This document shows positions 9,009 through 57,877 of a stretch of 64,000 nt of DNA, one piece after another (the stretch's first letter is position 1; each line of letters opens with the position of its first letter). This DNA comes from Escherichia phage vB_EcoM_G10400. The position numbers and the translations under genes were made by a program. Under the pieces are notes generated by a model. That model had not been told where the DNA came from. It did no database searches and saw nothing but the letters and a program-made list of their open reading frames with translations. The DNA lies in sequence record MK327937.1; one strand, given 5' to 3'.

Positions 9009-9479
9009 TTAATCATGTTTCCACACCCCATCGGTATTTGACCAAAGTCGCTGATTATCTGATCCTCGCCACAGCTTTTTAGTCGGAAGATTTTTCTCAT
9101 ACTTCCCATCAATAATAACATCAACATATTTAAGCATTTCTAGTTGTTTAATATCTTCAAACTTATATCCTGTCCACAACCAAATGCTTTTATTGGGATA
9201 AAGATTTTTTACTGTTTGAACAATGCAATGAATAACATCTCGGTTATCAGGATAGAGAGGGTCACCTCCAGTTATAGTCAATCCTTCTATATAATCATTA
9301 TTCAAACATTCAATTAATTGTTCTAGTGTTTCACCAGTGAATGGAACGCCATTTCTAGCGTTCCATGTTGATTTATTATAACACCCTTCACATTTATGCA
9401 AACAACCTGTAACGAAAAGAACGACCCTGCATCCAGGGCCATTCACAAAATCGCAAGGATAAAATCTATCATAATTCAT
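9009..9479 (-). CDS. nrdG: Anaerobic ribonucleotide reductase activating protein (radical SAM)
   Basis: 156 aa; CxxxCxxC radical-SAM motif (CLHKCEGC); translationally coupled to nrdD. Confidence 0.9.
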   Translation of the reverse strand: MNYDRFYPCDFVNGPGCRVVLFVTGCLHKCEGCYNKSTWNARNGVPFTGETLEQLIECLNNDYIEGLTITGGDPLYPDNRDVIHCIVQTVKNLYPNKSIWLWTGYKFEDIKQLEMLKYVDVIIDGKYEKNLPTKKLWRGSDNQRLWSNTDGVWKHD

Positions 9480-11293
9480 TGGTGTTTAACCCTATGCATG
9501 ATTTCTTTATTTTTGCCGAGATTAAATCCACGTTCGTTCGGATTTCCCAAATAACCACAAGTTCTTCTTATTGTGTTCATCTTTTTAGGATCAGTTTCTC
9601 CACAAATAGAACAAACAAACCCGTTTTCAGTAGGAGTCATTTCATGGGTACTTCCACACGTAAAACATTTATCTACTGGCATGTTAACACCAAAATAATC
9701 TAAATGTTGTGCAGCATAATCCCAGACAGCCTCAAGACCTTTTAGGTTATTTTTCATATCAGGAAGTTCAACATAAGAAATGTGACCACCTGTCGCAATG
9801 AAATGATATGGCGCTTCACGAGAAATTTTTTCAAACGGAGTAATATTTTCTTCTACTGAAACGTGGAAACTATTAGTGTACCAGCCTTTATCGGTAACAT
9901 CTTTTACACTTCCATATTTTTCTGTATCAAGTTTACAGAAGCGATAACAAAGGTTTTCAGCAGGAGTCGAATATAAACTAAAAGCAAATCCAGTTCTTTC
10001 AGTCCACTGTTTAAGATGAGCATTCATTTTAGTTAAAATTTCTTGTCCAATATCACGACCGACAAGAATATTCAATTCGTGAATACCAATGTATCCTAGG
10101 GACACTGAACTTCTACCATTTTTAAATAACTCAATTATATCGTCATCAGGTTTAAGACGAACCCCGAATGCACCTTCTTGGTAAAGAATAGGAGCAACAG
10201 TCGCTTTAACTCCTTTTAAGGAACTAATTCTACACATCAAGGCTTCAAAGCACAGATCCATTCGTTCATTAAATAGCTCAACAAATTTCTGTTCATTGAA
10301 CTGTGTTCCAATATAAGAATCTAATGCGATACGAGGAAGATTCAGTGTTACAACACCGAGATTATTACGTCCATCAAGAATTTCATTACCAGTCGAATCT
10401 TTCCATACGCTCAAGAAACTACGGCAGCCCATCGGAGAAACAGGAATAGATGAACCAGTGATAGCTTTATTGTTCTTAGCTGAAATAATATCAGGATACA
10501 TCCTTTTGCTTGCACACTCTAGAGCAAGCTGCTTAATATCATAGTTCGGATCGTCTTTATAAAGATTAACACCTTCTTCAACGAACATAACAAGCTTAGG
10601 GAAAATAGGAGTTATCCCATCACGACCGAGACCTTTAATACGATTTTTCAGAATTGCTTTCTGAATCATTCGTTCAGTCCAGTCAGTTCCCGTACCAAAT
10701 GTAATTGTTACAAAAGGTGTTTGCCCGTTTGAACTAAAGAGAGTATTTACTTCATATTCATAAGCTTGAAATGCATCGTATACATCTTTTTCTGTTTTAG
10801 ATTGAGCATAATTCAACGCATCAGCGATTTGCCATTTTTCTGCATCCTCAATATGTTTTGCATAGGTGCGTTTAACATAAGGAGAAAGTACTTTATCTAC
10901 ATTAGCAAAAGTCGTTCCGCCGTATTGGTGAGAAGCAACCTGTGCAGTAATTTGTGCCATAATTGCAGTAGCAACTCCAATTGATTTAGGAGTTTCAATC
11001 TGTGCATTACCAAGCTTAAATCCGTTCTCAAGCATTCCTTTTAAATCTACTAAACAGCAATTAGTAAAAGGCAATGATATACTGTAATCTAAATCATGAA
11101 AATGAATTAATCCAACATTATGGGCATTTACAATATGACTTGGAAGAATACGACAAGCGATATGTTTAGAAACAATACCGGCCATTAAATCTCTTTTTGT
11201 TGGAAAGACGCGAGAATCTTTGTTGGCGTTTTCCGTATTTAATTCTTTATCTTTATTTGAAATAAAATTTAAAACATCTTTTTCTAAAGACAT
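9476..11293 (-). CDS. nrdD: Anaerobic ribonucleoside-triphosphate reductase
   Basis: 605 aa uninterrupted ORF; C-terminal glycyl-radical motif (RRTCGYLG) and a Cys-rich zinc site. Confidence 0.95.
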   Translation of the reverse strand: MSLEKDVLNFISNKDKELNTENANKDSRVFPTKRDLMAGIVSKHIACRILPSHIVNAHNVGLIHFHDLDYSISLPFTNCCLVDLKGMLENGFKLGNAQIETPKSIGVATAIMAQITAQVASHQYGGTTFANVDKVLSPYVKRTYAKHIEDAEKWQIADALNYAQSKTEKDVYDAFQAYEYEVNTLFSSNGQTPFVTITFGTGTDWTERMIQKAILKNRIKGLGRDGITPIFPKLVMFVEEGVNLYKDDPNYDIKQLALECASKRMYPDIISAKNNKAITGSSIPVSPMGCRSFLSVWKDSTGNEILDGRNNLGVVTLNLPRIALDSYIGTQFNEQKFVELFNERMDLCFEALMCRISSLKGVKATVAPILYQEGAFGVRLKPDDDIIELFKNGRSSVSLGYIGIHELNILVGRDIGQEILTKMNAHLKQWTERTGFAFSLYSTPAENLCYRFCKLDTEKYGSVKDVTDKGWYTNSFHVSVEENITPFEKISREAPYHFIATGGHISYVELPDMKNNLKGLEAVWDYAAQHLDYFGVNMPVDKCFTCGSTHEMTPTENGFVCSICGETDPKKMNTIRRTCGYLGNPNERGFNLGKNKEIMHRVKHQ

Positions 11294-28524: not shown

Positions 28525-28784
28525 ATACTGGCTTCTTTGAGTTTCGTTTTAGCAATAGTTAACTGATCGAGGCTTTCAGCATAATTCTTCGCGAGTTCAT
28601 CGTCTTCACAGCTATCAAATGCTTCCCAAAATTCATCGTATAAAGCATCAAAGATAAGTCCTAAACGAACTTCAGCGTCTTTAATAGCATTTACTTTACC
28701 GATTTTTTCGTCGGTATGTGGCTTATAACCTTTAATATCTTCAATCATATTTGACTTCCTCACCAGTGCATAAATCATATTCAA
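28482..28784 (-). CDS. Hypothetical protein
   Basis: 100 aa ORF. Confidence 0.4.
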
Positions 28785-28962
28785 CTAAACGAATAGGTTC
28801 ATGAATGCCATATCCTTGAACAGAAATTTCTGTCGTAGGATAAATTCCATCAATATCACCCATATTCCAGGCTTCATTAAATTGCTGTTCGCCTGAATTA
28901 CTAAACCACTCGGCGAAAGCATTTAGCACATCTTTAGAACCTTCAATAATTATCTTTGCCAT
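28741..28962 (-). CDS. Hypothetical protein
   Basis: 73 aa ORF. Confidence 0.4.
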   Translation of the reverse strand: MAKIIIEGSKDVLNAFAEWFSNSGEQQFNEAWNMGDIDGIYPTTEISVQGYGIHEPIRLVEYDLCTGEEVKYD

Positions 28963-29324
28963 TACAAACTCTCGGTGAAGGTACGAGCAATAACGTCGCG
29001 CTGCTGTTCCGGAGTCAGAGAGTTAAAGCGAACTGCATAACCAGATACACGGATGGTCAGCTGCGGATATTTTTCCGGATGCTTAACTGCATCTTCCAGA
29101 GTTTCACGACGCAGAACGTTAACGTTCAGGTGTTGACCACCTTCAATTTTAACTGTAGGCTGTTGCTCAATTTCAATTTCACGGGCATGCAAACCGTAGA
29201 AAATTTCTGGGTCTACAAAAGAGTCCTCTTTAAAGGTTTTAGAGACAATAATTCGTGCTTGAATACCATCTTCAAAATAAATAGTACCTTTATGTGTGCC
29301 TTCAAGAATTTGATATGCTTTCAT
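28962..29324 (-). CDS. Autonomous glycyl-radical cofactor (GrcA/YfiD-like)
   Basis: 120 aa; C-terminal half carries the pyruvate-formate-lyase glycyl-radical signature (RVSGYAV) and is encoded by markedly GC-rich DNA (about 28962-29170). Confidence 0.8.
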
Positions 29325-29331
29325 ATAAACC

Positions 29332-29658
29332 TCAATTAGAAAATAAATTTATCCAAGATTGTTCTTTAATTAAAAATGGCTCAGAATCATATGCCATTAA
29401 ACTTTGGGTGATTAGTCCTTTAAAAGGTCCATCAATAAATTCCATGGTAAAATATGGAATTTTATTCATTAACTGTGCGTTAGGAGCAGTGCACAAAACT
29501 CTGCATCCTTTGAATACACCTTTTTGTAATTTGTATTGCTTGGGATAAAATTCGCTTAAAATGTTGTTATTTGCCAAAATTTCAAAATGATTTACCAATT
29601 TATTTTTAATAGTTTTTGGCGAAAAATAGAGATATTCGAAAAGCTGTGTGTCTGTCAT
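29332..29658 (-). CDS. Hypothetical protein
   Basis: Track ORF 29332-29712; ATG at 29656-29658 (MTDTQLFEY) overlaps the upstream stop (108 aa). Confidence 0.45.
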
Positions 29659-30254
29659 TATTGCATTCCGATTACGAAAAACTGTGGACGAGTAATACCA
29701 CCAATGCAACATTTACTATTACAGCAGTAGTGTACAGTGTCAATATGGACGCTATAAATCTTATCCATATCAGGAGATTTGACAGGCTCATCAATTATAT
29801 ACAAAATTCGCGAAAGCGATAAACCTCTGAACTTGCTTCCTTTATTACCAATAAAACTGCGTACAGAATCAGTAAATAAACGAAAACGTATATCATCATT
29901 AGAATAACGCGAAAATTCCTTTTTAATGTTATTTGCAGAAATTTTAGCGTAAGCTGAAGTATTAGAAAGAACAATAACTGTTCCGCCATCATACAGCCAA
30001 TTAGCAGCAAAGTTAGTCACAGCAATTGATTTACCAGATTGACGTCCACCATCTATACGAAGTGTGCAGTACTGTTTAAGTAATTCTTCAAATGGCGGGA
30101 TATATTCGTTTTTACAAATTTCTTCTACTCTAGCATCAGAATGGTGTGTAAAAGCATTCATCAGGGATAGATACGGGCCAGTTAAAAATGTTCTCATATT
30201 TTCTCTCTTAATTTTTGGGCCATTCCATGGCACATGAGTTGTCCATTCCTGCAT
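29658..30254 (-). CDS. Small P-loop NTPase
   Basis: 198 aa; Walker A GGRQSGKS and Walker B-like ILYIIDEP. Confidence 0.5.
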   Translation of the reverse strand: MQEWTTHVPWNGPKIKRENMRTFLTGPYLSLMNAFTHHSDARVEEICKNEYIPPFEELLKQYCTLRIDGGRQSGKSIAVTNFAANWLYDGGTVIVLSNTSAYAKISANNIKKEFSRYSNDDIRFRLFTDSVRSFIGNKGSKFRGLSLSRILYIIDEPVKSPDMDKIYSVHIDTVHYCCNSKCCIGGITRPQFFVIGMQ

Positions 30255-30332
30255 TACCCATTACCGCGCTTTGGCTCGACCTTATCACAGGTTGGCGGGA
30301 ATACCTCAAATGAGGTCCAGGCTGTTCCCATA

Positions 30333-30806
30333 TTATTTGAACGATTTAACGTACTGAATAGAACCTTTACTATTTACAAAGGCAATTTTACCATTTTTAT
30401 TATACATGGTAGCAGTACGTTGATAACCATAAGTTTGTTTACCAGATTGATAACCAACTAATGCGAAATTATCTTCACCCATTTTATTCTGTTTAGCGCG
30501 AATGCGTTCATGACCATGTGCCATAAGAACCTTAGCATCACCAGTTGCAATGGATCTACGAGTTTTTTCATCTTCAACTGTATTAACAAAGTCGTCAAAT
30601 GAATCAAATTTAGCATGAGATTTATTATACAGTTTTCCATCTACTGTATAATTATATCCCTGTACATCCATCTCAACTTCTGTACCATCATCCAATACAG
30701 CAGTGATTTTTTGACCTTTTTTAAATTTCAAAAGATCAGTAAAAGATTCAGCAATAATTTGAGAATTAATAGCTGCTTCAGTGATAAATTCTTGATATGT
30801 TTTCAT
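30333..30806 (-). CDS. Internal head protein candidate (IpII/IpIII-class)
   Basis: 157 aa; N-terminus MKTYQEFITEA is the conserved capsid-targeting sequence of T-even internal proteins; lysine-rich body. Confidence 0.65.
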   Translation of the reverse strand: MKTYQEFITEAAINSQIIAESFTDLLKFKKGQKITAVLDDGTEVEMDVQGYNYTVDGKLYNKSHAKFDSFDDFVNTVEDEKTRRSIATGDAKVLMAHGHERIRAKQNKMGEDNFALVGYQSGKQTYGYQRTATMYNKNGKIAFVNSKGSIQYVKSFK

Positions 30807-36119: not shown

Positions 36120-36159
36120 CTTATTTCCTGTTTTAATTTGTAGATATTTAATATACTAA

Positions 36160-36167
36160 TATTTATA
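36160..36167 (-). promoter_or_regulatory. Late promoter upstream of the internal-protein candidate
   Basis: TATAAATA on the minus strand, about 40 nt upstream of the ATG at 36119. Confidence 0.55.
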
Positions 36168-36200
36168 CCAAAAAGCCCCAACCTTTCGGTCGGGGCTAAG
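36166..36200 (-). terminator. Intrinsic terminator (repeat copy B; end of the tRNA/stable-RNA operon)
   Basis: Same 35 bp element with one substitution (GAAA loop), followed by a U-tract. Confidence 0.6.
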
Positions 36201-36510
36201 CCTTGCGGCAACCTTGTCGGGGTTCCACCTGCTAAGGCAAGTGTTTGTACGAAACGCCGGGATTCGAACCCGGTTATTAAGCAGTTGACGCTACTCAATA
36301 TTTTTAAAAGGCCATATCTCGACCATATCCGAACGTTCCGTCAAAAACACTACTCGGCTTACGGCAAAGATATTTCCTCGAATCGATAATTCGGTGCGCC
36401 GTTTCTGCTGTGATGTAAGAGGGCATCAATAAACGCAAAGATTATTAACGCAATTCCTTACTCAGGGAACATCAGTCCGACGACTTGCCGGTAGCGACCC
36501 GGCTTCTTGT
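36201..36510 (-). ncRNA. Candidate small stable RNA region (T4 species 1/2-like)
   Basis: About 310 nt with no ORF between the operon terminator and tRNA-Arg; contains a tRNA-like T-arm (CCGGGTTCGAATCCCGG on the minus strand, about 36257-36273) and extended stem pairing (ccttgc…gcaagg). Boundaries not determined. Confidence 0.4.
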
Positions 36511-36511
36511 C

Positions 36512-36587
36512 TGGTCGAGGCAGTAGGGATCGAACCTACGACCCAGGACTTAGAAGGTCCTTGCTCTTCCTTCTGAGCTATGCCCCG
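36512..36587 (-). tRNA. tRNA-Arg (anticodon UCU)
   Basis: Hand-folded cloverleaf: acceptor CGGGGCA/TGCCTCG, anticodon arm AGGAC-CTTCTAA-GTCCT, T-arm GGGTTCGATCC; CCA encoded. Confidence 0.85.
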
Positions 36588-36590
36588 TAA

Positions 36591-37256
36591 TTAAAATTTC
36601 ATTTTTCGACCTTTAAACCATCCTTCTGGAATTGGGTCAGTTTTCTTAATACGTTTAGAAACTTTTTCATCTAATGAATGAATCCACATCATGCCAAATT
36701 GGGAATTCTTTTCACCTTGTTGGTGTTTATTTCTGGCGTGAGATTCTTTCATTTTATTAATAGTTTCAGGAGTATGGGTCTTACCCAAGAAAGATTTAGT
36801 ATTTAAAAATTTCTCTCTATACTTAGGATTATCCCAAAGCTGTTTAAACCTTTCTGAACCCATTTTACGATATTTTTCTTTAAGGTCTGGGTCGTTCTCA
36901 AATCTGGTTTTAAAAGCGGCAGCTCCTTTTAAGGAAGCTTCTTTCTTTTTATCCAAATATTCTTTAGTGTTTAAATGGTCCCAACCACCTTCACCACCTA
37001 ATTTCAAATTATAAACATCAGAGCGCTTTAAAAACTCTTCAGTCACAATATTCTTTTCTGACTCAAACATAGAGGTTTTATCGTCAAAGAACTCTAATAT
37101 TTCTTTAGAAAAATTTTCTATACCATACTTATCTTGGGCTCTTTTTAATAATTTACCAGAACCCATATATCCATCATCTAAATTTTCGGTAGAATGAGCG
37201 CCTATATAGATTTTATTATTAATTTTATTTGTTATTTTATAAATGTAATGGAACAT
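36591..37256 (-). CDS. segB: GIY-YIG homing endonuclease SegB
   Basis: 221 aa; N-terminal GIY-YIG motif (YIYKITNKINNKIYIG); embedded in the tRNA cluster, as T4 segB is. Confidence 0.8.
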   Translation of the reverse strand: MFHYIYKITNKINNKIYIGAHSTENLDDGYMGSGKLLKRAQDKYGIENFSKEILEFFDDKTSMFESEKNIVTEEFLKRSDVYNLKLGGEGGWDHLNTKEYLDKKKEASLKGAAAFKTRFENDPDLKEKYRKMGSERFKQLWDNPKYREKFLNTKSFLGKTHTPETINKMKESHARNKHQQGEKNSQFGMMWIHSLDEKVSKRIKKTDPIPEGWFKGRKMKF

Positions 37257-37297
37257 AAATATCTCCTATTTCTAAGAGTATTTATGTTCTCAAAATA

Positions 37298-37369
37298 TGG
37301 CCCTGGGTGGAATTGAACCACCATCTGGCGATTATGAGTCGCTTGCTTGAACCTTCCAGCTACAGGGCC
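37298..37369 (-). tRNA. tRNA-Ile (gene anticodon CAU; would score as Met)
   Basis: Hand-folded: acceptor GGCCCTG/CAGGGCC, anticodon loop CTCATAA, T-arm GGTGGTTCAATTCCACC. Ile assignment follows the T4 tRNA set. Confidence 0.75.
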
Positions 37370-37375
37370 TTGATA

Positions 37376-37448
37376 TGCTGATTGACGGAATCGAACCGCC
37401 GACGTCCTCATTACAAGTGAGGTGCTCTACCTACTGAGCTAAATCAGC
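37376..37448 (-). tRNA. tRNA-Thr (anticodon UGU)
   Basis: Hand-folded: acceptor GCTGATT/AATCAGC, anticodon arm CCTCA-CTTGTAA-TGAGG, T-loop TTCGATT. Confidence 0.85.
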
Positions 37449-37455
37449 GAAATTA

Positions 37456-37542
37456 CGGAGGCGATAGGATTTGAACCTATGAGTCGCCGGAGCGACTGCC
37501 GGTTTTCAAGACCGGTGCATTAAACCACTCTGCCACGCCTCC
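37456..37542 (-). tRNA. tRNA-Ser (anticodon UGA)
   Basis: Hand-folded: acceptor GGAGGCG/CGCCTCC, anticodon arm CCGGT-CTTGAAA-ACCGG, long variable arm, T-loop TTCAAAT. Confidence 0.85.
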
Positions 37543-37544
37543 AG

Positions 37545-37618
37545 TCTCCGCGGCAGGATTTGAACCTACGACATTCTGCTCCCAAAGCAGATGCTCTACC
37601 AAACTGAGCTACACGGAG
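37545..37618 (-). tRNA. tRNA-Pro (anticodon UGG)
   Basis: Hand-folded: acceptor CTCCGTG/CGCGGAG, anticodon arm TCTGC-TTTGGGA-GCAGA, T-arm GTAGGTTCAAATCCTGC. Confidence 0.85.
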
Positions 37619-37630
37619 TAAATTAAATTT

Positions 37631-37702
<72 letters not shown>

Positions 37703-37708
37703 AAACTT

Positions 37709-37795
37709 TGGTACGAGAAGTGGGACTCGAACCCACAAGGAAATCATTCCGCAGCATTTTAAGTGCTGTGCCTTTACCAATTTGACCATTCTCGC
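37709..37795 (-). tRNA. tRNA-Leu (anticodon UAA)
   Basis: Hand-folded: acceptor GCGAGAA/TTCTCGT, anticodon arm CAGCA-CTTAAAA-TGCTG, long variable arm, T-arm GTGGGTTCGAGTCCCAC; CCA encoded. Confidence 0.85.
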
Positions 37796-55671: not shown

Positions 55672-56330
55672 TGAGTTTACTTAATAATAAAGCGGGAGTT
55701 ATTTCCCGCTTAGCAGATTTTCTTGGTTTTAGAACTAAGAAAAATGATATTTCGGTTATGAATAATCAGCCAGTAGGTGCTGTAACAATTTCACAAATAG
55801 CAAAAGGTTTTTATGACCCAAATGTAGAATCTGCTATCAATGATGTTAGAAATATGGCAGAGCAACAGGTTGGAGCTGTATTAGTTAATATAAGTGGCGT
55901 ATCTCCTACTGGCGTGCAGCAAACAGACTATTGGTCATTTGAAGGAACTGTTACTGATACTTCAGCCAAACCAGGTGACCCAGTTATTGTTAATATGTTT
56001 GGCATTCCTGTTAAAGCTACTAATGGAATGACTTCAATCGAATTTACCAGTGCCGTTAGAACAGCTCTACAGGAAATGGTTGCAAAATTTATTGCAATTG
56101 ATTCATTTGAAGACCATCCTACCATAGGAAATAAAATACAAGTTAAGTATTTAGATAACCAAGAACATATCTTAGAACAATACTCTGATAAAGGAATTAC
56201 TTTCAAACAGGAAATAATTTCTCCTTCTAAACCTGGGTATGGAACTTGGCAATTATTAGGTGCGCAAACTGTTACGCTAGATAGTCACACCCAACCTACA
56301 GTATTTTATTATTTTGAGAGAATAGCATGA
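55671..56330 (+). CDS. 11: Baseplate wedge protein gp11 (short tail-fibre attachment)
   Basis: 219 aa from the ATG at 55671 ([20 protein letters not shown]), matching T4 gp11; the track ORF starts 6 codons earlier. Confidence 0.9.
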
Positions 56331-57877
56331 GTAACAATACATATCAGCACGTATCAAATGAATCAAAATACGTTAAATTCGATCCTGTAGGATCGAATTT
56401 TCCTGACACTGTCACGACAGTGCAGTCAGCATTATCAAAAATAAGTAATATCGGCGTAAATGGTATTCCTGATGCAACTATGGAAGTTAAAGGAATAGCA
56501 ATGATTGCATCGGAGCAAGAGGTTTTAGATGGAACTAATAATTCTAAAATCGTTACACCAGCTACATTAGCAACAAGATTATTGTATCCAAATGCTACTG
56601 AAACTAAATATGGATTAACACGCTATTCAACAAATGAAGAAACTTTAGAAGGCTCAGATAATAATTCATCAATAACGCCACAAAAACTGAAATACCATAC
56701 TGACGATGTATTCCAAAATAGGTATTCATCTGAATCATCAAATGGAGTTATTAAAATATCATCTACTCCTGCGGCTTTGGCTGGAGTTGATGATACTACG
56801 GCAATGACTCCATTAAAAACCCAAAAACTTGCAATAAAATTAATTTCACAAATAGCTCCTTCAGAAGACACAGCATCAGAATCTGTTAGAGGTGTAGTTC
56901 AGTTATCAACTGTCGCTCAAACTCGTCAAGGAACTCTTCGCGAAGGATATGCAATTTCTCCGTATACCTTTATGAATTCTGTTGCAACACAAGAATATAA
57001 GGGTGTTATACGTTTAGGAACACAATCGGAAATTAACAGTAATTTAGGAGATGTTGCAGTAACAGGCGAAACATTAAATGGTCGAGGAGCTACTGGTTCT
57101 ATGCGCGGTGTAGTAAAATTAACGACGCAAGCCGGTATTGCCCCCGAAGGTGATGGCTCTGGAGCATTAGCATGGAACGCAGATGTAATTAATACTCGCG
57201 GTGGACAAACTATTAACGGTTCTTTAAATTTAGACCATCTTACAGCAAATGGAATTTGGTCACGCGGCGGTATGTGGAAAAATGGCGATCAACCTGTTGC
57301 CACTGAAAGATATGCGTCTGAAAGGGTTCCAGTTGGAACTATTATGATGTTTGCGGGTGATTCTGCACCTCCAGGTTGGATTATGTGCCATGGTGGAACC
57401 GTGTCAGGAGATCAATATCCTGATTATAGAAACACAGTTGGAACAAGATTTGGTGGTGATTGGAATAACCCTGGCATTCCTGATATGCGAGGTCTTTTCG
57501 TCAGAGGAGCTGGCACAGGAGGTCATATTTTAAATCAACGAGGACAAGATGGTTATGGAAAGGATAGACTTGGCGTAGGATGTGACGGAATGCATGTTGG
57601 CGGTGTTCAAGCACAACAAATGTCATACCATAAACATGCTGGTGGCTGGGGAGAATACCAAAGACATGAAGCTCCATTTGGCGCGTCCGTTTATCAAGGA
57701 TATCTTGGAACTAGAAAATATGCCGACTGGGATAACGCTTCATACTTCACTAATGATGGATTTGAATTAGGTGGACCGAGAGATGCCCTTGGTACACTTA
57801 ATCGTGAAGGATTAATTGGTTATGAAACTAGACCATGGAATATATCATTAAACTATATTATTAAAATTCATTACTAA
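56327..57877 (+). CDS. 12: Short tail fibre gp12
   Basis: 516 aa; repeat-rich N-terminus and C-terminal receptor-binding domain. Confidence 0.9.

Follow-up and report, generated by a model that had tools for sequence, protein, structure and literature searches.

The 3' half of a T4-type vs.6 gene derives from host grcA, probably through repeated gene conversion

We analysed a stretch of 64,000 nucleotides (nt) from Escherichia phage vB_EcoM_G10400 (sequence record MK327937.1), hereafter the window, which corresponds to ~34–98 kb of the T4 genome. Our subject is a small gene on its minus strand, the ortholog of T4 vs.6 (UniProt name Y06I), which encodes a GrcA-like (YfiD-like) "spare part" protein. 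Our results support an origin of the 3' half of this gene from an enterobacterial grcA by recombination, with Escherichia coli as the donor, and we think it probable that this part has been converted repeatedly from differing host alleles. The locus comprises the following features, given by window position.

28962..29324, minus strand: vs.6/Y06I ortholog, a GrcA-like "spare part" protein of 120 amino acids (open reading frame (ORF), T4 synteny, Pfam/NCBIfam and PDB match)
29147..29324, minus strand: phage-lineage 5' half, a probable diverged GrcA N-terminal region (gene positions 1–178, residues 1–59)
28978..29146, minus strand: core tract derived from E. coli grcA (gene positions 179–347, residues 60/61–116)
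28962..28977, minus strand: 3' edge of host homology including the stop codon, where phage-specific synonymous states are kept (gene positions 348–363)
29031..29051, minus strand: RVSGYAV glycyl-radical motif, residues 92–98 (from the translation)
29040–29042, minus strand: codon of Gly95, equivalent to Gly102 of E. coli GrcA and Gly734 of PflB (alignment to PflB 697–759)
28741..28962, minus strand: downstream ORF at the vs.5 position, where host homology stops (ORF list and T4 annotation)
29332..29712, minus strand: upstream ORF at the vs.7 position, with no Pfam match (ORF list and T4 annotation)

The gene belongs to a co-directional run of small genes whose order is kept as in the T4 annotation (denV, vs.8, vs.7, vs.6, vs.5 ... 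regB, vs.1). The vs.7-position ORF stops 7 nt ahead of the vs.6 ATG, and the ATG of the vs.5-position ORF overlaps the vs.6 stop codon (TAATG). The gene shares 97.5% nucleotide identity with T4 vs.6 and up to 99.7% with its counterparts in other Tequatrovirus genomes. This identity and gene order, with the position between vs.7 and vs.5 near regB and denV, therefore identify the window as coming from a T4-type phage and the gene as the vs.6 ortholog, in agreement with an earlier prediction made from the sequence (the original prediction), which had expected a T4 YfiD-like ORF here. The product is a small protein ending in a Gly_radical domain (Pfam PF01228 at residues 60–101, 67 bits against a cut-off of 22.2) with the RVSGYAV motif, as in GrcA/YfiD (TIGR04365, IPR011140). 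Its best PDB match is 6owr, E. coli GrcA (residues 22–120), and it also matches the C-terminus of PflB (697–759). A promoter and terminator scan around vs.6 returned nothing beyond chance.

Base composition changes abruptly inside the gene. The guanine-plus-cytosine (GC) content is 0.481 in the 3' 185 nt (28962–29146) versus 0.343 in the 5' 178 nt (29147–29324), and 185-nt windows across the 64 kb average 0.347 (standard deviation 0.044). A GC content of at least 0.481 is reached in just 0.6% of these windows, the rest of which fall in a tRNA cluster (~36.2–37.8 kb) and one block at 57469, and a GC step of equal size occurs at 1.2% of window positions. GC at third codon positions (GC3) is 0.426 in the 3' half versus 0.220 in the 5' half. 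When 61-codon windows were scored against the codon usage of the phage (52 ORFs, 14,778 codons), the 3' half ranked among the lowest 0.85%, whereas the 5' half is typical (43rd percentile); CTG supplies five of six leucine codons in the 3' half (5% phage-wide) and CCG all three proline codons. We conclude that composition and codon usage are host-like (E. coli-type) in the tract only. The sharp GC break predicted within the gene was thus recovered, together with a shift in codon usage at gene position 179. It lies inside the gene as claimed and is sharper than described, while its location needed correction, since host identity starts from window position 29146 and not ~29170.

Sequence searches linked this segment to the host. 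In blastn searches of 5,426 complete E. coli genomes, each genome had a grcA matching gene positions 179–363 (96.2% identity, 178/185, E = 8e-79), whereas the gene upstream of position 179 had no match in any of them. When the whole 64-kb window was compared with the same genomes by megablast, the tract was the only match, besides a weak one to the pflB paralog at the same place. The C-terminal 60 residues are identical to those of E. coli GrcA, and the core tract shares 167 of 169 nt with grcA of E. coli SK1144, the two differences being at window positions 29043 and 28989. The enterobacterial grcA/yfiD source proposed for the 3' half in the original prediction is therefore supported. The other candidate donor, pflB, was rejected on its DNA identity (81.8% versus 96% to grcA).

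Away from the tract, the other GC-rich blocks of the window largely correspond to a cluster of seven tRNA genes on the minus strand (36156–37795; Arg, Met, Thr, Ser, Pro, Gly, Leu), as in T4. The sole other protein-coding block as GC-rich (57469–57653, 0.481) lies inside a 516-amino-acid ORF on the plus strand (56327–57877). A local GC peak of up to 0.53 in 100-nt windows (30200–30324) covers the 5' end of the vs.8-position ORF and its upstream spacer. Neither of these last two regions has an E. coli megablast match.

The donor could be resolved further with grcA from 56 enterobacterial and related genomes. Tequatrovirus and Mosigvirus tracts are identical to E. coli grcA at 178–182 of 185 positions, ahead of the next-best donor genera, Citrobacter and Trabulsiella (166–168/185), and of Salmonella (~156/185). 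A neighbour-joining tree grouped E. coli, Escherichia sp. and 17 Tequatrovirus/Mosigvirus copies with 97% bootstrap support. The gene thus combines a segment of host identity and host composition with intragenic breakpoints, its 3' half is supported as a recombinant derivative of an enterobacterial grcA, and the donor is resolvable to the phage's own host species, E. coli.

We then delimited the exchanged segment. Host identity begins at gene position 179 (window 29146), the point from which the phage gene can be aligned with that of the host, and this 5' junction is identical in all copies compared. Identity to E. coli extends to around gene position 347 (window 28978), and five sites differ in the final 16 nt (TTC ACC GAG AGT TTG TAA in the window versus TTT ACT GAA AGC CTG TAA in E. 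coli). The 3' edge is nested among phages, which are E. coli-like up to -8 (T4), -11 (phiC120), -14 (T2) and -17 (window) from the gene end. Host identity thus fades 8–17 nt before the stop codon, where homology ends.

The 5' half has a remote protein similarity to the N-terminus of E. coli GrcA (BLASTP 36% over 39 amino acids, E = 1e-5). The T-even relatives examined (Jiaodavirus, Karamvirus, Slopekvirus, Pseudotevenvirus and Krischvirus) have the same 120-amino-acid layout (139 amino acids in Krischvirus), with 3' halves that are 75–89% identical to E. coli. A GrcA-like N-terminus and a shared layout argue that the phage possessed a grcA homolog beforehand, the 3' half of which was replaced. 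We take the 5' half to be an old, diverged GrcA N-terminus, and the event to be a replacement and not a fusion. The original prediction had described a phage-type half fused to a host domain; this does not agree with the alignment of TIGR04365 from residue 20 onward nor with the layout common to T-even phages.

To what extent is the mosaic shared? In the phage collection, 638 genomes matched the E. coli tract at ≥95% and 8 at 90–95%, followed by a gap to ≤87%, so that ~646 Tequatrovirus/Mosigvirus genomes carry the tract. A 5' half 88.8–100% identical to that of the window was found in 648 phages, again followed by a gap (to ≤79%). Given these similar counts, the whole Tequatrovirus/Mosigvirus group carries the mosaic. 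The T4 copy is also nearer to E. coli grcA (182/185) than the window copy is (178/185), an outcome that the original prediction had named as counting against it. With ~646 genomes sharing the tract, its recent acquisition in this particular phage, as originally proposed, does not hold.

This distribution also bears on whether the mosaic could be an artefact, either an assembly chimera or contamination of phage assemblies by host reads. Phage lysates do contain host DNA, from which reads would be drawn to the tract. Yet the same in-frame junction is present in ~646 independent genomes, including the T4 reference, T2 and RB phages, as well as in IMG/VR contigs; phage-specific states persist at the 3' edge; and the T4 Y06I protein itself has been purified and assayed (Wagner et al. 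2001, as relayed in PMC8683613). We give an artefact almost no credence.

We compared ~1.1 kb (vs.7, vs.6, vs.5) between 9 Tequatrovirus and 7 Mosigvirus genomes, with the following results.

vs.7: between-genus divergence 14–47%, fixed differences 73/290
vs.6 5' half: between-genus divergence 8–15%, fixed differences 9/172
Tract: between-genus divergence 1.3–2.4%, fixed differences 0/169
vs.5: between-genus divergence 22–33%, fixed differences 54/221

The deficit of fixed differences in the tract was significant relative to the 5' half (Fisher test, P = 0.0035) and to vs.5 (P = 2e-15), and between-genus divergence in the tract was no greater than within-genus diversity. The fixed differences nearest to this trough on either side, at positions 170 and 360, are both ≤10 nt from the limits of host homology. 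Because the collapse of divergence is confined to the tract, both genera must have gained or renewed it after their split.

A trough of this kind could also arise from a single recent conversion from E. coli in one phage lineage, followed by spread between Tequatrovirus and Mosigvirus through phage–phage recombination in co-infected cells. T-even phages recombine intensively, the tract is nearly identical in both genera, and the same 5' junction is found in all copies, all of which speaks for such spread. However, the low-divergence zone ends ≤10 nt from the host-homology limits on both sides, although longer exchanges would have been possible through the adjoining 5' half, in which the genera are ~90% identical. 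The coincidence of the trough limits with the host-homology limits therefore favours separate conversions from E. coli in Tequatrovirus and in Mosigvirus over exchange between phages. Spread from one event is also at odds with the variation of the 3' tract ends among phages, and we regard it as unlikely.

The same data speak to an older history, in which grcA was acquired once, long ago, and its nucleotide identity was held by purifying selection, for example at the codon level for expression, without later exchange. The C-terminal 60 amino acids are indeed identical in E. coli, Tequatrovirus, Mosigvirus and Enterobacter phage EC-F2. But EC-F2 encodes these 60 residues with 31/185 nt differences, and phage Miro has nearly the same protein despite many nucleotide differences (31–36/185 for the two phages), so amino-acid constraint is insufficient to explain the nucleotide match. 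Moreover, the tract is specific in matching E. coli rather than Salmonella or Citrobacter, uses codons in a way unusual for the phage, and is the only place where between-genus synonymous divergence collapses. An ancient acquisition is therefore strongly disfavoured and, in our view, very improbable.

We compared polymorphism in the tract with that of host grcA, using 17 Escherichia-type alleles (two GTDB genomes, 13 metagenome contigs and two further complete genomes). These alleles contain nine interior variants, seven of which are variants segregating among 17 phage copies (-172G, -169T, -160A, -145C, -82T, -82A and -28T, counted from the gene end). The phages have 17 synonymous variants among 123 possible ones, which puts the probability of at least seven coincidences at P = 8e-6 (P = 0.003 at the level of sites). 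Both interior differences between the window and SK1144, at 29043 and 28989, occur as Escherichia grcA alleles. The shared variants and the nested 3' edges fit repeated copying from different host alleles; the coincidence of phage variants with host allelic variants is a further point against the spread of a single converted tract.

Shared polymorphism has no inherent direction, and several of the shared variants are C-to-T, as AT-rich phages would favour. The grcA genes of E. coli and Klebsiella might thus have taken tract variants from phage DNA, with flow from phage to host or both ways. Against this, the tract has host-like composition and codon usage, and a cell must survive infection to inherit phage DNA. 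In addition, GC3 is the same in both halves of E. coli grcA (0.42/0.43), and the relationships of these halves to other enterobacteria are congruent. The tract is therefore native to E. coli, and since it is foreign to the phage, the transfer went from host to phage. We infer this direction for the individual events and consider flow towards the host improbable, even as part of a two-way exchange.

A parallel case was found in phages of Klebsiella. The K. pneumoniae allele came from a metagenome scan (L181), was identified via mislabelled PLSDB records, and is 100% identical to K. pneumoniae grcA. Jiaodavirus vs.6 switches at the same junction as the window gene to a K. pneumoniae-type tract. 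In the phage collection, this tract was matched at 95–99% by 80 genomes and at 90–95% by 58 (138 in total); the four entries examined are Klebsiella phages of ~166–168 kb, genus Jiaodavirus. Jiaodavirus tracts are 94–97% identical to K. pneumoniae grcA, and five of them differ from the K. pneumoniae allele at 5–11 of 172 positions, versus 21 for E. coli. In phage PSE-D1, 103 consecutive nt are identical to the K. pneumoniae allele, and phage Nispero has zero private interior differences. Nine of the ten variants separating two other Klebsiella alleles (L184 and K. aerogenes, for which only the last 110 nt are usable owing to a 1-nt indel in the record) were found among 16 Jiaodavirus variants (P = 5e-9). 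With the grcA of a Klebsiella sp. metagenome-assembled genome as query, no phage reached 95%. Amino-acid variants track the host, ETLEDAVKH being found in E. coli and its phages and ETLLDAVEH in Klebsiella and its phages. Spread of a single E. coli-derived tract leaves this parallel unexplained. The Jiaodavirus tract, the divergence trough and the shared polymorphism together indicate more than one exchange; the number of events within the E. coli phages is something we infer.

Among five Jiaodavirus sequences (L006, L180, L261, L262 and L264), the tract is more variable (2–12/172 nt) than the 5' half (0–6/178), the reverse of the pattern between Tequatrovirus and Mosigvirus. Such variability would fit if several Klebsiella alleles had been copied and had then decayed towards AT.

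Other lineages differed in this respect. The tracts of Karamvirus, Slopekvirus, Pseudotevenvirus and Krischvirus had no close host donor, with ≤86% identity to any of ~135 host sequences. Genes resembling grcA also occur in T5-like phages (~105–122 kb) and jumbo phages (~345–357 kb) of enterobacteria; their glycyl-radical halves are ~69–76% identical to the tract of the window, and we therefore see no recent host conversion there.

Several database records deserve caution. PLSDB records NZ_CP093490.1, CP125156.1 and LR134122.1 carry chromosomal grcA and are apparently mislabelled chromosomes or fragments, one of 5.37 Mb. The indel in grcA of the K. aerogenes NCTC10006 record is frameshifting. 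A genome labelled Vagococcus sp. WN89Y (GTDB, L040) carries an enterobacterial grcA, which suggests contamination or mislabelling.

Taken together, we think it probable that vs.6 is an old phage grcA homolog with a spare-part function, whose 3' part has been repeatedly converted from differing host alleles. Several observations weigh against this. The grouping of K. pneumoniae with Jiaodavirus has a bootstrap of only 61%. The tract of Krischvirus phages that infect E. coli is only 75% identical to E. coli, so infecting this host is not sufficient for conversion. With Salmonella grcA, no phage matched at ≥95%, and no Salmonella-type tract was present in the phage collection. The score of the NCBIfam GrcA equivalog TIGR04365 (residues 20–120, 154.9 bits) falls below the curated cut-off of 170, because the N-terminal half is diverged. 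T4 degrades host DNA, which is expected to make host–phage exchange rare. The host allele samples are small (17 Escherichia-like and 3–4 Klebsiella), and the base-by-base inspection covered 17 Tequatrovirus/Mosigvirus and 5 Jiaodavirus sequences. The main alternative to repeated copying, parallel mutation at a few tolerated synonymous sites, could partly account for the shared variants. Finally, we dropped the idea that patchy conversion left ancestral phage states: 13 of 17 interior variants match outgroup phages, but 51–69% would do so by chance, and the excess is not significant.

How could the exchange proceed? T-even replication is recombination-dependent. In the mechanism we propose, the phage lineage would long have carried a full-length grcA homolog, and in E. 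coli phages its 3' 170–185 nt would have been overwritten by chromosomal grcA via homologous recombination (gene conversion), the conversion tract reaching no further than phage and host genes can be aligned. A broken end of phage DNA within vs.6 may invade a fragment of host grcA and copy from it. Re-annealing to phage DNA would be possible only if synthesis stayed inside the homologous 185 nt, which would give a fixed 5' limit and a ragged 3' limit. A first conversion would lift identity to nearly 100% and so make later conversions easier. Tequatrovirus and Mosigvirus would draw on E. coli and Jiaodavirus on Klebsiella, the tract evolving in concert with the host gene.

An extension of this reading, possible but held more tentatively, is that the 3' halves of vs.6 and host grcA form one recombining pool, in which conversion is ongoing, measurable in laboratory passages and maybe bidirectional. 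If so, the 170–185-nt tract would be a natural built-in reporter of host-to-phage recombination in DNA-degrading phages, and the phage spare part would stay matched to the PflB and PflA of the species currently infected.

The function of the gene is best approached from T4. As relayed in PMC8683613, Wagner et al. (2001) reported that T4 Y06I and E. coli YfiD take the glycyl radical from the activase of pyruvate formate-lyase (PFL) and restore O2-cleaved PFL; the vs.6 match to Gly_radical has also been noted in comparisons of T4-like genomes (PMC1524935). The window protein differs from Y06I at two residues, Q54 (P in T4) and R73 (H in T4), so the same function, as a spare part for O2-damaged PFL, can be presumed by analogy. 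The host activase PflA would put the glycyl radical on Gly95 in RVSGYAV, and the C-terminal domain would stand in for the PFL C-terminus after O2 cleavage at Gly734. The output of acetyl-CoA and formate could thereby be maintained in infected cells under shifting oxygen.

Formate, the product of PFL, is the reductant of class III ribonucleotide reductase. The window encodes such an enzyme and its activase, given here as functional context only.

9009–9479, minus strand: NrdG activase (Pfam Fer4_12 and Radical_SAM)
9476–11293, minus strand: NrdD anaerobic ribonucleotide reductase (Pfam NRDD and Gly_radical)

Formate from rescued PFL may plausibly supply anaerobic deoxynucleotide (dNTP) synthesis by NrdD/NrdG, which would be a physiological benefit to the phage.

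Damaged or altered copies of vs.6 were observed in some isolates. In RB55, a 13-nt deletion takes out the GYAV codons and shifts the frame; in vB-Eco-KMB39, a 55-nt tandem duplication within the tract splits the gene in two; and OES_C-2 has lost 6 nt in frame from the 5' half. Provided that they are not sequencing errors, these changes make vs.6 appear dispensable in laboratory propagation.

A 157-amino-acid ORF (30333–30806, minus strand) with a full-length match to Pfam DUF7412 (E = 1e-95) separates the vs.8 and denV homologs. Since vs.8 comes directly after denV in the T4 reference, one of the two genomes differs here by an insertion or deletion.

Work on T4 has already established this gene and its biochemical role, and a resemblance to YfiD has been recognised since 2001. 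On function the window therefore brings nothing new, and the interest lies in evolutionary behaviour. The conversion dynamics appear undescribed so far: our literature search found no description of the nucleotide identity to host grcA, the mosaic, the trough or the shared polymorphism, although an earlier mention is possible. If repeated conversion is correct, it would provide direct natural evidence that strictly lytic T-even phages with modified DNA recombine with the host chromosome given ~170 bp of homology, and that a host-interacting domain is kept host-matched by gene conversion, beyond selection on point mutations. There is also a practical aspect. A 2026 study chose grcA as a core-gene marker for quantitative PCR of Straboviridae (PMC12845203). 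Primers placed inside the tract, 96–99% identical to E. coli grcA, could amplify E. coli or Klebsiella DNA.

Comparison with known systems places the gene as follows. Its closest counterpart is T4 vs.6 (Vs.6/Y06I), an ortholog with the same neighbours, the same length of 120 amino acids, and the same mosaic and 5' junction. The T4 tract has three differences from SK1144 grcA versus seven in the window, and its identity stops 8 nt before the gene end versus 17 nt. E. coli GrcA (YfiD; nuclear magnetic resonance structure 6owr) shares the identical C-terminal 60 residues, 96% of the tract DNA, RVSGYAV and a similar length. It differs in that the N-terminal 59 residues of the window protein are only ~36% identical over 39 amino acids, the window protein is 7 residues shorter, and vs.6 lies in a phage operon whereas grcA lies between ung and eamB. 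Window residues 58–120 align to residues 697–759 of PflB (E = 5e-26), the C-terminal glycyl-radical piece that the spare part replaces, but identity at the DNA level is far lower to pflB than to grcA. A broader parallel is offered by psbA and psbD of cyanophages, photosynthesis genes that are host–phage mosaics formed by intragenic recombination with Prochlorococcus and Synechococcus. In both systems T4-like phages carry a host-derived metabolic gene in which segments of host composition mark intragenic exchange. Unlike in psbA and psbD, the exchange in vs.6 involves one half of a very small gene, with limits set by the end of homology. Also unlike the cyanophage case, it concerns T4 and close relatives that degrade host DNA, and the identity is specific to the host species in two separate systems, E. 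coli with its phages and K. pneumoniae with Jiaodavirus.

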